In this document: positions 15,664-20,763 of the stretch, piece by piece
How positions within the stretch are numbered: the first letter of the stretch is position 1
Layout: every line of letters begins with the position of its first letter
Assembly: GCA_016186525.1 (NCBI GenBank)
Contig: JACPLM010000028.1
Location: 1-20,763 of the forward strand
Length of the DNA stretch: 20,763 nucleotides
Origin: Candidatus Nealsonbacteria bacterium
GTDB taxonomy: Bacteria > Patescibacteriota > Minisyncoccia > Minisyncoccales > MHMH01
Reading direction: 5' to 3'
Program-made: the position numbers and the translations under genes
Notes under the pieces: generated by a model
What the model was told of the DNA's origin: nothing
What the model saw: only the letters and a program-made list of their open reading frames with translations
Databases searched by the model: none

Positions 15664-16497
15664 ATGGATATTATTAAGGCCTCCGGAGAAAAAGAAAAAT
15701 TCGATAAAGAGAAGTTTTGCCGATCGCTTAGAAGAGCCGGAGCTGATTCCGAGGCAGTTCAAAAGATTTGCGGCGCAATAACAAAAGAAGTATATCCCGG
15801 GATAAGTTCAAGGGAGATTTTCGAAAAAACTCAGAGTTTTTTAAAAAAAGACAATCCGATATTAGCGGCCAGGTATAATTTGAAAAGAGCCATTATGAGG
15901 TTGGGGCCGACCGGTTTTCCCTTTGAGAAATATATTGCCGGAGTATTGGAAGAATATGGCTATACAACTCAAGTTGGAAAACAAGTTATGGGCCGCTGCG
16001 TTACTCATGAAGTTGACGTTATTGCCCAGAAAGAAGGAAAGCATTTTATGATTGAATGTAAATATCACAACAGCGGCGGAATTCGGTCTGACTTGAAAGT
16101 GGCTCTGTACACCTACGCTAGATTTTTAGATGTGGAGGAAGAATGGAGGAAAATTCCAGGCCACAAAAATTTTTTCCACCAAGCATGGCTGGTAACTAAT
16201 ACCAAATGCACAAGCCAGGCTATAAAATATGCCAATTGCGCCGGCTTAAAGATTCTCAGCTGGCGTTATCCGAAAGGCGGCAGCTTGGAGAATCTAATCG
16301 AGAGAAAGGGCCTTTACCCAATTACCATTCTTCCGTCATTTGCAAGATATGCCGGAGAAAGACTGGCCCAGCAGGGGATTATGCTGACTAAGAATTTATT
16401 GCAGTATTCCGCAGACAGCTTATCAAAAAGAACCGGCCTTAAATTGCATATTATTCAAAGGCTTCAGGCGGAAGCTAAGCAGATTATAAATAGTTAG
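15664..16497 (+). CDS. ATP-cone domain protein fused to Mrr-like PD-(D/E)xK restriction-endonuclease fold
   Basis: The N-terminal ~90 aa (IIKASGEKEKFDKEKFCRSLRRAGADSEAVQKICGAITKEV...REIFEKTQSFL) match the ATP-cone pattern. FEKYIAGVLEEYGYTT...THEVDVIAQKEGKHFMIECKYH gives the D...E-x-K nuclease motif. The helical C-terminal tail may be HhH-like. Confidence 0.78.
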   Translation: MDIIKASGEKEKFDKEKFCRSLRRAGADSEAVQKICGAITKEVYPGISSREIFEKTQSFLKKDNPILAARYNLKRAIMRLGPTGFPFEKYIAGVLEEYGYTTQVGKQVMGRCVTHEVDVIAQKEGKHFMIECKYHNSGGIRSDLKVALYTYARFLDVEEEWRKIPGHKNFFHQAWLVTNTKCTSQAIKYANCAGLKILSWRYPKGGSLENLIERKGLYPITILPSFARYAGERLAQQGIMLTKNLLQYSADSLSKRTGLKLHIIQRLQAEAKQIINS

Positions 16498-16515: not shown

Positions 16516-19014
16516 ATGAAAAAAGAAGTATTTAAAATCAGGGGCATGCATTGCGCTTCTTGCGCAAATACTATTGAGAAAGTAGTTGCTAATTTAGTCG
16601 GAGTAAAGTCGGCTCAAGTTAATTTTGGGGCAGAAACCCTGTTGGCGGAATACGATGAGTCAAAGACCGGTCCTGAAGAGATAGCTAAAACCGTAGAGGG
16701 CGTGGGGTACAAGCTTTTAATGCCGGAAAGGAAAGAGCCGTCCCTGGTTAAGACTGCGGACGGTAAGGCATTTTTGGCTTTTAAGGTCGTGGGCATGGAT
16801 TCGCCTCATTGCGCCATGATCGTTGAAAAGGCGCTTAAAACTTTGCCCGGCATTGAGAAAGCCGAAGTGGATTACAACAATACCAGAGCCAAGATAGTTT
16901 TTGATCCCAAAAAGATTTCAGGAAAAGAAATTGAGAAAGTTATTGACGATACCGGCTATGAAGCCATTGCGGAAACTTCGGAGGCCCATGATATTTTAGA
17001 AAAAGAAAAACAGGAGCGGGAGAAAGAAATTTCTAATTTAAAAAGGAAGGTGATTATCGGAGTTATTTTTTCCATAGTCATATTTTTGGGCAGTTTTCCA
17101 GAGTGGTTCAGCTTTGTCCCCAAAATTTTAACCAATTATTTCATTTTATTTTTACTAACAACGCCTGTTCAATTTTGGGTGGGCAGCAGATTTTATCGGG
17201 GCTTGGTTGTTTTGTTCAAATACAGAACGGCCGATATGAATACCTTAATATCCATAGGCACCCTATCGGCATATTTTTACAGCGCAGTTGTAACTTTTTT
17301 CCCGGAATTTTTTATGAAGGGGGGCATTTTGCCAAAACCGTATTTTGACACTTCGGCAATAATCATTACTTTAATTTTACTTGGCAGATATTTTGAAACA
17401 ATGGCCAAGGGCAGGGCTTCAGAAGCCATTAAAAAGTTAATGAAGCTGGGAGCTAAAACCGCCAGGATTATAGTTGGGGAGCAAGAAAAAGAAATTGAGA
17501 TTGAAGCGGTAAAAGTCGGAGATATAATTTTGGTCAGGCCCGGTGAAAAGATTCCGGTTGACGGCGAAGTTTTAGAAGGCAAGTCGTCCGTTGACGAATC
17601 TTTGGTTACAGGAGAATCAATGCCGGTAAGCAAAGAGCAGGGTTCAAAAGTTATCGGCTCTACCATTAATCTTTCAGGAGTATTGAAATTCAGAGCCAGT
17701 AAAGTCGGGAAAGAAACTTTGCTTGCGCAGATTATAAAAATGGTTGAGCAGGCCCAGGCCTCCAAAGCTCCGATTCAGCGGCTGGCGGACTTAGTTTCTG
17801 GCTATTTTGTCCCGATTGTTATCGGGATTGCCATTTTAACATTTATTGTTTGGTTATTTTTTGGGCCTTCGCCGGCCATAACTTTTGCCTTGGTTAATTT
17901 TGTGGCGGTATTAATTATCGCTTGCCCTTGCGCCTTGGGGCTGGCCACCCCCTTGGCGATTATGGTGGGTACGGGATCGGCTGCCCAAAAAGGAATTTTA
18001 GTGAAAGACGCCGAGGCCCTGGAAATCGCCCATAAAGTAAAAGCGATTATTTTAGATAAAACAGGAACTTTAACCAAGGGGAAGCCAGAACTGACCGATA
18101 TTAAAACCTTTGGCGGCAACGAGAAAGAGATTTTGCAATTGGCTGCCAGCCTGGAAAGATATTCTGAACATCATTTAGCAAGGCCGATAATCGCCAAAGC
18201 CCAAGCCGAAGGATTGGATTTTTTAGCAGTTGAAAATTTTAAGGCAGTTGCCGGCAAAGGAGTAAAAGCCAATTTGGGCGCCATAGGCAATAGGGGACTA
18301 ATGAAAGAATTGGGCATATCTTTGGAAGATATTGAAAAAGATATCGTAAAATTGGAGGAGGAAGGTAAAACAGCGGTAATTTTGGCTGTTGGAAACAGGC
18401 CCAAGGGTATTTTTGGCATTGCAGATACTCTTAAAGATGAAGCAATCGGAATAGTGAAATCGTTAAAAAAAGAGGGTTTGGAAGTTTGGATGATAACCGG
18501 CGACAATGAAAGAGTAGCAAAGGCTATAGCCGGACAAGTTGGCATAGAAAATATTATGGCTGGTGTACTGCCTAATGAAAAAGCAGAGATGGTTAAAAAA
18601 TTACAAAGCGGAAAAATTGAAAATTGGAAATTGGAAATTGGAAATTCCCGCCAGAGGCGGGTTGTGGCTATGGTGGGCGATGGCGTTAACGATGCCCCGG
18701 CTTTGGCACAGGCAGAACTGGGCATTGCTATGGGCGAGGGCACAGACATTGCCATGGAATCAGCCGAAATCACCTTAATGAGAGGGGATTTAACCTTGAT
18801 ACCTGAAGTAATATCTCTTTCCAAAAAAACTTTGGGAATAGTCAAACAAAATTTATTCTGGGCATTTTTCTATAACGTGGCCTTTATTCCGGTGGCAGCA
18901 GGCGCCTTATATCCATTTTTTGGCATCTTGCTCAATCCTATTTTCGCCGCCGCTGCCATGGCTTTCTCGTCTATTTCGGTAGTTCTCAACTCTCTTCGTC
19001 TAAAGCGAGTATAA
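16516..19014 (+). CDS. copA: copper-translocating P1B-type ATPase
   Basis: Two N-terminal HMA domains: GMHCASC, and a degenerate GMDSPHC in which the first Cys is replaced by Ser. CPC motif [11 protein letters not shown], phosphorylation site DKTGTLT, hinge [10 protein letters not shown], and MITGDN. Confidence 0.95.
18613..18647 (+). repeat. five tandem heptamers (A/G)AAATT(G/C) inside copA
   Basis: AAAATTG, AAAATTG, GAAATTG, GAAATTG, GAAATTC at 18613, 18620, 18627, 18634 and 18641. They are followed immediately by the hairpin CCCGCC-AGA-GGCGGG (18647..18661). Confidence 0.85.
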
Positions 19015-19020
19015 ATAAGT

Positions 19021-19033
19021 GCCTGTGGATAAC
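19021..19033 (+). promoter_or_regulatory. DnaA-box-like motif inside 13-nt repeat GCCTGTGGATAAC (copy 2)
   Basis: Identical to 5454..5466. TGTGGATAA lies at 19024..19032, 7 nt upstream of the lexA-fusion -35 element. Confidence 0.4.
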
Positions 19034-19039
19034 CTCCCG

Positions 19040-19069
19040 TTGACACCCGACTGAACGGTCGGGTATAAT
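19040..19069 (+). promoter_or_regulatory. consensus sigma70-type promoter of the LexA-methyltransferase gene
   Basis: TTGACA (19040..19045), 18-nt spacer, TATAAT (19064..19069). A second TATAAT at 19072..19077 abuts ATG 19078. No SD, so the mRNA is leaderless or nearly so. Confidence 0.6.
19045..19064. promoter_or_regulatory. perfect 7-bp inverted repeat in the promoter spacer (candidate operator)
   Basis: ACCCGAC-TGAACG-GTCGGGT fills the -35/-10 spacer. It could be a LexA autoregulatory site, or a weak hairpin terminating copA. Confidence 0.4.
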
Positions 19070-19077
19070 TGTATAAT

Positions 19078-20763
19078 ATGAAAAAAGAAGACGCCACTAA
19101 AAGGCAAAAACAGGTTTTAAAAATCATTTATAACAGCTTAATTAACGCCGGTTTTCCGCCGTCTTTCAGCGAGCTCAAAGAAAAATTAAAAATTTCCTCC
19201 AACCAGTCTCTTTTGGATCTTTTTTCAATTTTAGAAAGAAAAAGCTTAATCAGGCGTGAGGAGGGTTCTGCCCGTGGCATTAAAGTTCTCAAAGCTGGGT
19301 ATAAAGCCATTAATGCTTCGCCTCTGGCTCCGATAGTCGGCGCCACGTCAGCCGGCAGTTTCACCGAAGCCATAGAAGAAATTGATGCCTGGGTTCCTTT
19401 GTCAAAAGATACGGAAGTTATCTCCGAAGATGTTATAATTACTAAAGTGATAGGGGACTCAATGATAGGGGCCGGAATAAACGACGGGGATTTAGTCCTA
19501 TTTAAAAAGACAAACGATTTTATTTCGGGCGACATTGTCCTGGCCCAAACACCCGACGGCACAACGGTAAAGCGTTTCATCTCCCAAAATAAACCTCCCT
19601 ACAAATTTTTAAAGCCGGAAAATCCAAAATATAAACCAATTACTTTTACCGCCGAAACAGAGTTAATCGGCAAGAAAAAAGAGTTAGGACAATTTTTCAC
19701 TAAAAAATCAGACTATATTTTTCAGAGGTTAGAGAAATATATTAAAGGAAAGAATGTCGTTGATCCTTTTGCCGGAGAGGGAGATTTGTTAATCTGGGCG
19801 AAACAAAAAGGAGCAAAAACCGTAAAAGGCGTCGATGTTGACGAGAGATATGCCCAGAAGAAAGATATATCTCATGGCGATAGTATAAAAAATCCTTTGC
19901 AATATCAGTTCGTTTTAACTAATCCGCCATATCTTAACATAAATAAGGCTAGTGAAGAAATAAAAAAACGATATTTTGTTGATTCAGGATTCGAGGATTT
20001 GTATCAGCTTTCTCTCCGCACTATTATGGATAGCGACGAGGGTATTGTTATTGTTCCGATAAATTTTCTATCAGCTGAAAATTCAAGGAAGATTAGAGGC
20101 ATATTTTTTAATAAATTCGAAATCGTAGAGATGAATTATTTTACTTGTCAGGTTTTTCCAGATACGACATACAACGTTATAGCGTTTTATTACAGAAAGA
20201 AAAATAATCCGTTAGATACGAAATTTACCATAAAAACTCACATATACCCGCAAAACAAGAAAATAGATATTGAATTAAAGAAAGAGTTCGGCTGGACTAT
20301 AAATGGCTCATTCCTTAAAATTATTAAGAGCCAGAAGAATGAACTGGGGATATATAGATTAACAGAGGAAGACGTTAAAAAAAATCACGGGCACATGGAG
20401 GTACCGGCCACGTATAACCATGTAAAAAATAAAATTCCCATAACCGTATCGAAAAATTTATATGATTTAATAAAATCTAATATTATTTTATTAAAGGCTA
20501 TTGATAGCGGGACGGAAGAAGGTAAAATCAGTTTAGAAAATATAAGAAAATATGGGGTTGACTGCCTTGTCAGCAAAGAATCGTCAAGGCACATGATATA
20601 TTTTATTTTTGAGAATAAAGTATCTATTCCGGAGCAAGAAAAAATTATAGATATCTTTAACAGTGAAATAAATAGAATGAGAGACGAATATTCATCTTTA
20701 TTTTTGACTAATTACCGCGATAATGGCAGAAAGAGAATATCCTTTGACTTCACCTATAAATTT
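19078..20763 (+). CDS. lexA: LexA repressor (wHTH + S24 autopeptidase) fused in frame to a gamma-class N6-adenine DNA methyltransferase; 3' end beyond the window
   Basis: I translated it by hand: 562 sense codons with no stop up to the window edge, which is why it is absent from the ORF track. LexA part: RQKQVLKII...GFPPSFSELKEKL...SARGIKVL, Ala-Gly site in VGATSAGSF (19351..19356), GDSM Ser (19459..19461), TVKRF Lys (19570..19572) and LKPENPKYKPI. MTase part: GQFFT (19687..19701), VVDPFAGEGD (19756..19785), NPPY (19921..19932), followed by a TaqI-like downstream layout. Confidence 0.85.
   Translation, partial: MKKEDATKRQKQVLKIIYNSLINAGFPPSFSELKEKLKISSNQSLLDLFSILERKSLIRREEGSARGIKVLKAGYKAINASPLAPIVGATSAGSFTEAIEEIDAWVPLSKDTEVISEDVIITKVIGDSMIGAGINDGDLVLFKKTNDFISGDIVLAQTPDGTTVKRFISQNKPPYKFLKPENPKYKPITFTAETELIGKKKELGQFFTKKSDYIFQRLEKYIKGKNVVDPFAGEGDLLIWAKQKGAKTVKGVDVDERYAQKKDISHGDSIKNPLQYQFVLTNPPYLNINKASEEIKKRYFVDSGFEDLYQLSLRTIMDSDEGIVIVPINFLSAENSRKIRGIFFNKFEIVEMNYFTCQVFPDTTYNVIAFYYRKKNNPLDTKFTIKTHIYPQNKKIDIELKKEFGWTINGSFLKIIKSQKNELGIYRLTEEDVKKNHGHMEVPATYNHVKNKIPITVSKNLYDLIKSNIILLKAIDSGTEEGKISLENIRKYGVDCLVSKESSRHMIYFIFENKVSIPEQEKIIDIFNSEINRMRDEYSSLFLTNYRDNGRKRISFDFTYKF

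Follow-up and report, generated by a model that had tools for sequence, protein, structure and literature searches.

A stretch of 20,763 nt from a Candidatus Nealsonbacteria genome (contig JACPLM010000028.1 of assembly GCA_016186525.1; hereafter the window) ends within a single open reading frame (ORF) that joins the self-cleaving repressor LexA to a gamma-class N6-adenine (m6A) DNA methyltransferase (methylase). We attribute this frame, with a probability of roughly two in three, to a derived allele in which a 26-bp deletion in one lineage joined the first two genes of a conserved operon consisting of lexA, a methylase gene (M) and a restriction endonuclease gene (R). We regard it as a one-off fusion of two genes, made by accident (or by mis-assembly), rather than as a protein of a new type. 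Its two modules are unremarkable members of families already known, one being LexA and the other the gamma-class m6A methylase of a Tsp45I/DpnII-type restriction-modification (R-M) system. Features of the window and of the related loci (denoted by L numbers) are located in Table 1.

In a DNA alignment with relatives, exactly 26 nt (AATGATTAAAAAGTTATAnnTATGAC) are absent from the window at the junction. They comprise the final five codons of lexA with its stop, a 2-nt spacer and the ATG-AC with which the methylase gene begins. In the relatives, lexA (204 aa) ends in ELIGKMIKKL followed by a stop, and the ATG of the methylase (MTKKELGQFFT) lies 2 nt later in another frame. The distance from LexA Lys199 to the KKE anchor of the methylase is 26 nt in 13/13 directly adjacent lexA-M loci (4 lineages, ~10 independent samples from ENA, JGI and Logan) and 0 nt in the window. 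The two genes occupy different frames in all 13 of these loci; because the methylase lies in the +2 frame relative to lexA and 26 is 2 modulo 3, the loss leaves a single frame. A first-pass annotation, made from the letters of the window, had named a stop and an independent methylase start in sister genomes as the observation that would speak against a fused architecture, and this arrangement was found in every sister locus.

The fused frame itself was described correctly at that stage: codons 1–562 are uninterrupted from the ATG, and the last base of the window still lies inside the ORF. Pfam recognized three domains in the product (LexA_DNA_bind, Peptidase_S24 and the Eco57I methylase family) and, together with the TIGR00498 model, these profiles support both of the proposed modules. 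No ATG, GTG or TTG lies in frame between codons 129 and 237, which rules out an internal start codon; the methylase therefore has no start of its own, in agreement with the initial description. A frameshift in the A-run at the junction that masks two separate genes was also ruled out, because stops interrupt the other two frames and the methylase lacks its start codon.

In the LexA module, a LexA-type winged helix-turn-helix (wHTH) is recognized at aa 5–67 (LexA_DNA_bind PF01726, 44.7 bits against a cut-off of 23.7) and an S24 domain with its Ala-Gly site and Ser/Lys dyad at aa 85–199 (Peptidase_S24 PF00717, 85.4 bits). With the NCBIfam lexA equivalog model TIGR00498, the match reaches 128 bits (cut-off 111) and covers model positions 3–193 of 203. 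When the module is aligned to the T. maritima LexA (3k2z), the AG, Ser and Lys of the latter stand opposite Ala92-Gly93, Ser128 (GDSM) and Lys165 (VKRF), and the module is 88–91% identical to stand-alone LexA proteins of 204–210 aa. The wHTH, cleavage site and dyad are thus present as first annotated, whereas the accompanying claim that every functional element of LexA is intact fails at the C-terminus. The last five codons and the stop, present in all relatives, are missing from the window lexA, and GKKKELG replaces the last LexA strand GKM[IV]KK[LI], which is conserved across the ~45 closest LexA proteins and is the counterpart of the last beta-strand in solved LexA structures. The module is not a free-standing LexA of ~200 aa with a complete C-terminal strand; the product continues into the methylase.

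The methylase module shows no sign of damage. The Eco57I family profile (PF07669) matches aa 208–360 with 29.6 bits against a cut-off of 25.3, and the motifs follow the X-I-IV order of the gamma class. Stand-alone methylases of 383–390 aa that start with MTKKELGQFFT are 88–90% identical to the window methylase, which keeps 113/113 of the family positions that are at least 95% conserved and fall inside the window. In an AlphaFold model, aa 210–562 have a predicted local distance difference test (pLDDT) score above 90, and Foldseek matched the modeled methylase to M.BseCI (7e-13), CamA (3e-12) and M.TaqI (1.6e-11), with target-normalized template-modeling scores of up to 0.57. The predicted model therefore has an M.TaqI-type fold, with a catalytic and a C-terminal target-recognition domain, and the profile, motif order and predicted fold together confirm the earlier assignment to TaqI-like gamma-class enzymes. 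The LexA part of the fusion model has pLDDT values of only 25–60 because only 4 LexA rows were correctly aligned, and the model is uninformative on the joint. Beyond the end of the window, the relatives continue with FTYKFINYIYFN; the stop of the methylase is expected ~21–28 codons past that end, and the start of the endonuclease gene within ~90 nt past position 20763.

The relatives also reveal what the methylase belongs to. A restriction endonuclease gene lies directly 3′ of the methylase in all relatives examined. Some encode an enzyme of the Tsp45I family (PF06300, 231 bits; PADLOC REase_II), others a DpnII/Tsp45I-like protein of 306–313 aa, and this neighbor identifies the methylase gene as M of a type II R-M pair. 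An R-M partner beyond the window had been guessed from the start; the relatives bear this out, and the window itself ends inside the methylase. The order lexA (204 aa), 2 nt, M (383–390 aa) and then R is seen in L003, L004–L006, L013 and L021–L024. More broadly, the R-M pair lies directly behind lexA in L001/L002, L003, L013/L021–L024 and L004–L006/L014, as lexA and M likewise adjoin in the window. One small ORF separates lexA from the pair in L007/L008 (259 aa in L007) and in L018 (90 aa), both from Nealsonbacteria genomes. Among the flanking genes examined, no lexA was found upstream of the pair in L009/L010, L017, L019 and L020, and none was seen in the short upstream stretches of L011, L015 and L016.

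Two features of the endonuclease genes bear on how these pairs evolve. One methylase family is accompanied by two endonuclease types, the Tsp45I type (258–276 aa; L013/L021) versus the DpnII-like type of 306–313 aa (L003/L009/L017/L020). Methylases of the closest lexA-linked lineages still share 88–90% identity, so that the endonuclease seems to have been exchanged beside a conserved methylase. Tsp45I itself cuts GTSAC (REBASE). In L001 and L002, the endonuclease (313 aa) is broken, with residues 1–115 and 181–313 in different frames and residues 116–180 missing, and the R-M system is decaying in this lineage.

The lexA promoter, a perfect sigma-70 promoter, carries a palindrome, CCGAC-N6-GTCGG, between its −35 and −10 hexamers. 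This sequence occurs once in the window against 0.15 occurrences expected and, in the nine lexA-promoter-bearing loci checked, exactly once per locus and always in the lexA promoter. From this distribution we take the palindrome as the putative operator of LexA in this Patescibacteria clade, through which LexA would repress the operon. No strong promoter was found between positions 19070 and 20290. As M lies 2 nt after lexA with no convincing promoter between them, M and R are most likely expressed from the LexA-controlled promoter.

Under the proposed deletion, the ancestral operon of this Patescibacteria clade (Parcubacteria/Nealsonbacteria-like) would have consisted of lexA, then a type II M and then R directly after it, with the lexA stop and the M start 2 nt apart in a +2 arrangement that suggests translational coupling. 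Loss of the 26 bp would merge the two frames, and the only source of methylase would then be the C-terminal portion of a LexA-M polypeptide expressed from the lexA promoter. In this product, LexA(1–199) would be joined without a linker to the methylase from its third residue. We infer that the deletion is biological and that the fusion protein is made and methylates DNA. Such an allele is probably viable in one of two ways: the joint, being in frame, may preserve an intact and active methylase, as would be required next to a functional endonuclease, or the endonuclease may have become defunct, as in L001. A random loss would yield an in-frame joint in one case out of three, and this would be the sole survivable outcome if the downstream endonuclease is active.

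The G+C content falls from 0.414 in the lexA part to 0.320 in the methylase part, a real drop that is smaller than the hand estimate first given. In every lineage M and R lie 5–15 G+C points under lexA and the flanking genes, whereas lexA tracks the host composition; the R-M pair is therefore compositionally foreign and lexA resident. Across lineages, the nonsynonymous (dN) and synonymous (dS) divergence of lexA and M run in parallel up to saturated dS, with a dN/dS ratio (omega) of ~0.08–0.10 for both genes, and this argues that the lexA-M linkage is old. A recent capture of a foreign methylase behind lexA was thereby ruled out, as M co-diverges with lexA despite its AT-richness; the compositional foreignness of the methylase, as initially proposed, stands. 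Pairs that contain the window have omega values of 0.08–0.10, the same as sister pairs and indicative of purifying selection. The terminal branch leading to the window shows no relaxed constraint (omega ~0.09 at dS ~0.38, a three-point estimate), from which it follows that the deletion is very recent (or not real), or that the fusion still works as a methylase.

We then asked how far the fused frame recurs. The 562-aa product was searched against 5.8 billion proteins, and the best 120 of 625 hits contained no fusion: all were stand-alone methylases of 378–433 aa without an S24 domain, covering 64–66% of the query, the best being 89–90% identical. The 120 closest LexA proteins (127–230 aa) likewise included no fusion, and in a HMMER search of 1.84 billion cluster representatives no match among the top 150 covered both halves. 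Thus, the fused frame was found in none of these independent sequences (0/120 methylase, 0/120 LexA, 0/top 150). Related-locus searches with the methylase alone gave 1 and 5 loci, and no relatives were found among viral contigs. Degenerate and exact patterns of the joint gave 0 matches in metagenome and genome collections, from which the source contig itself is also absent. The proteins of the neighboring CopA gene (16516–19014) and of an Mrr-like ORF (15664–16497), used to look for contigs of the same strain, are not on record, and no same-strain sequence was found. In the literature searched, neither a fusion of LexA with a methylase nor an operon of lexA with an R-M pair is described.

Other extended proteins turned up in these searches. 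Longer methylase relatives (500–670 aa) have N-terminal extensions without an S24 or LexA domain. Among distant methylase relatives (33–41% identity), the extensions span 165–320 aa without a Pfam match (P0172, P0176, P0180, P0184, P0191, P0198, P0201, P0207, P0208 and P0210; also P0238 and P0253) and represent an uncharacterized N-terminal domain on the methylase fold. One protein of 363 aa (P0219) combines LexA_DNA_bind, an S24 domain that breaks off at profile position 70 of 116, and RmuC (profile positions 100–270 of 291); here too, lexA has probably fused by accident with the gene next to it.

An alternative explanation of the fused frame is that the LexA-methylase is a selected, functional protein, in which RecA-stimulated cleavage at Ala92-Gly93 frees an S24-methylase from the DNA-binding domain and so couples the SOS response to methylation or R-M control. 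The cleavage site, Ser/Lys dyad, wHTH and all methylase motifs do lie in one frame, the methylase has no other start, constraint is not relaxed on the terminal branch of the window, and distant methylase relatives tolerate N-terminal extensions. However, the fusion recurs in no searched collection and every relative keeps two genes, the linker is absent and the conserved terminal S24 strand is overwritten, and one loss of 26 nt is sufficient to explain the present state; a very recent deletion would account equally well for a low omega on a branch of dS ~0.38. The proposal of a new architecture that couples damage sensing to methylation is therefore not upheld, since every sister locus is unfused and the fusion was seen nowhere else searched, and we consider a selected function improbable. 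It is just as doubtful that the protein binds CCGAC-N6-GTCGG by its wHTH, tethers the methylase to SOS promoters and cleaves itself at Ala92-Gly93 on damage. If this were true, the level, location or stability of the methylase, and hence protection from the partner endonuclease, would become RecA-dependent, and nature would have supplied a case of a self-cleaving repressor joined to the methylase of an R-M system.

A second alternative is that the genome has the normal junction (lexA stop, 2 nt, ATG of M) and that 26 nt were lost by an assembly or consensus error in a strain-heterogeneous R-M region. The joint is known from this one sequence only, the sequence flanking it is A-rich and of low complexity, and the window ends 1.1 kb downstream within the same gene. 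R-M partners differ between close relatives, a heterogeneity of the kind that breaks assemblies, and both modules look fully selected and free of decay, as expected for genes that are truly separate. The equally uncorroborated P0219 indicates that one-off LexA fusions, real or artefactual, turn up in such data. On the other hand, a clean loss of 26 nt is atypical of short-read or homopolymer error, no repeat shared by the two flanks of the joint has a length that could confuse a k-mer assembler, and the other large ORFs of the 20.7-kb window are all intact. An in-frame loss would arise by chance in one case out of three, yet is expected of a real mutant that survived. We regard an artefact as unlikely, though a possibility to be kept in mind.

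The deletion remains our preferred explanation, and several points weigh against it. It is drawn from a single sequence, for which a local assembly or consensus error is possible and, if the end of the window is also the end of the contig, the assembly breaks inside a strain-variable R-M region. A same-species genome for comparison was not found, the closest relatives standing at dS 0.5–0.7. The breakpoints have almost no microhomology and indicate no specific deletion mechanism. In the conserved last S24 strand, M, I/V and L/I become K, K and G and, judging from known LexA structures, the overwritten strand may destabilize LexA or impair the stability or dimerization of the repressor. Finally, the activity of the fusion is putative.

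Like known LexA proteins (TIGR00498; 3k2z of T. maritima, 1jhh of E. coli), the window protein has a wHTH and S24 domain, the Ala-Gly site, the Ser/Lys dyad and its own promoter with a palindrome; unlike them, it has its last 5 residues replaced and continues with at least 363 residues of methylase. It shares with gamma-class methyltransferases (PF07669; M.TaqI, M.BseCI, CamA) the X-I-IV order with NPPY and the predicted fold (Foldseek E-values of 1e-11 to 1e-13), whereas it is only 13–15% identical to the solved enzymes, with no sequence-level match in the PDB and no start of its own. The relatives resemble type II R-M systems whose endonuclease belongs to the Tsp45I family (PF06300), in that a gene for a Tsp45I-type or DpnII/Tsp45I-like endonuclease comes immediately after the same methylase; the difference is that the endonuclease position lies beyond the window and that, in this clade, the system probably sits within the lexA transcription unit.

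In E. coli lexA-dinF type operons, a gene downstream of lexA is co-transcribed with it and is hence under SOS control. The arrangement described here is alike in that the downstream genes lack their own promoter and terminator and lie behind a lexA promoter that bears an operator (here a candidate one), but the passengers are an R-M pair at 2-nt spacing, in the window physically fused by the deletion. In SsoII/Ecl18kI-type methylases, an N-terminal helix-turn-helix autoregulates the R-M operon; these are conserved family architectures with short helix-turn-helix regions. The likeness to the window protein is superficial: it too has a DNA-binding domain N-terminal to a methylase and, by analogy, could bind the promoter of its own operon, whereas it joins an entire self-cleaving repressor to a methylase and is a singleton.

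The remainder of the window is ordinary chromosomal sequence, encoding ribosomal protein L9, CTP synthase, UppS, a C-terminal processing protease, copper-handling genes and a CopA-type ATPase. The Mrr-like ORF (277 aa), which lies between a cupredoxin gene and the gene for the CopA-type ATPase, has weak matches to Mrr_cat (a PD-(D/E)XK nuclease) and to an AF1548-like C-terminal domain.

Table 1. Location of the fused frame, its modules and upstream elements in the window, and of corresponding features in related loci.
Feature	Position	Strand	Basis or remark
DnaA-box-like TGTGGATAA upstream of the lexA −35	19024..19032	+	kept in 5/6 lineages; inverted in L007
lexA promoter TTGACA-18 nt-TATAAT	19040..19069	+	12/12 consensus match; both hexamers kept in six aligned lineages
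Palindrome CCGAC-N6-GTCGG between −35 and −10	19047..19062	+	arms invariant, center variable, six lineages
Fused ORF, LexA + methylase	19078..20763	+	open from ATG 19078 to window end, 562 codons
lexA module, codons 1–199	19078..19674	+	profile matches and alignment to 3k2z
wHTH of lexA module	19090–19278	+	LexA_DNA_bind PF01726, aa 5–67
S24 domain of lexA module	19330–19674	+	Peptidase_S24 PF00717, aa 85–199
Ala92-Gly93 cleavage site	19351–19356	+	alignment to 3k2z
Ser128	19459–19461	+	alignment to 3k2z
Lys165	19570–19572	+	alignment to 3k2z
Deletion joint GGCAA|G	19673..19674	+	DNA alignment; relatives carry the 26 nt here
Gamma-class N6-adenine DNA methyltransferase module	19675..20763	+	Eco57I profile, motifs, predicted fold
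Methylase motif X, GQFFT, aa 204–208	19687–19701	+	sequence
Methylase motif I, DPFAGEGD, aa 229–236	19762–19785	+	sequence
Methylase motif IV, NPPY, aa 282–285	19921–19932	+	sequence
Palindrome in relatives	L001 466–481; L003 132–147; L004 5350–5365; L007 4457–4472; L013 204–219		
lexA-linked R-M pairs	L004 5384–7975; L021 6001–8617; L003 163–2877; L007 4489–7958; L018 2081–4985		
Broken endonuclease	L001 2281–3029; L002 1313–2058		relative with 89% identical methylase

Overall, the fusion itself matters little, being a single allele from one small deletion, and it illustrates how adjacent, translationally coupled genes can mimic a novel multidomain protein in a metagenome contig. If the allele is real and the endonuclease intact, the in-frame deletion would show in nature, on a small scale, how R-M addiction limits the mutations that can survive. 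The more general feature, and the lead worth more than the fusion, is the conserved lexA-M-R operon behind a promoter with an invariant palindrome. An R-M pair linked to lexA in at least six Patescibacteria lineages and lacking a promoter of its own implies that R and M would be expressed from the LexA-controlled promoter and hence be SOS-controlled, and CCGAC-N6-GTCGG offers a testable candidate LexA operator for this group.

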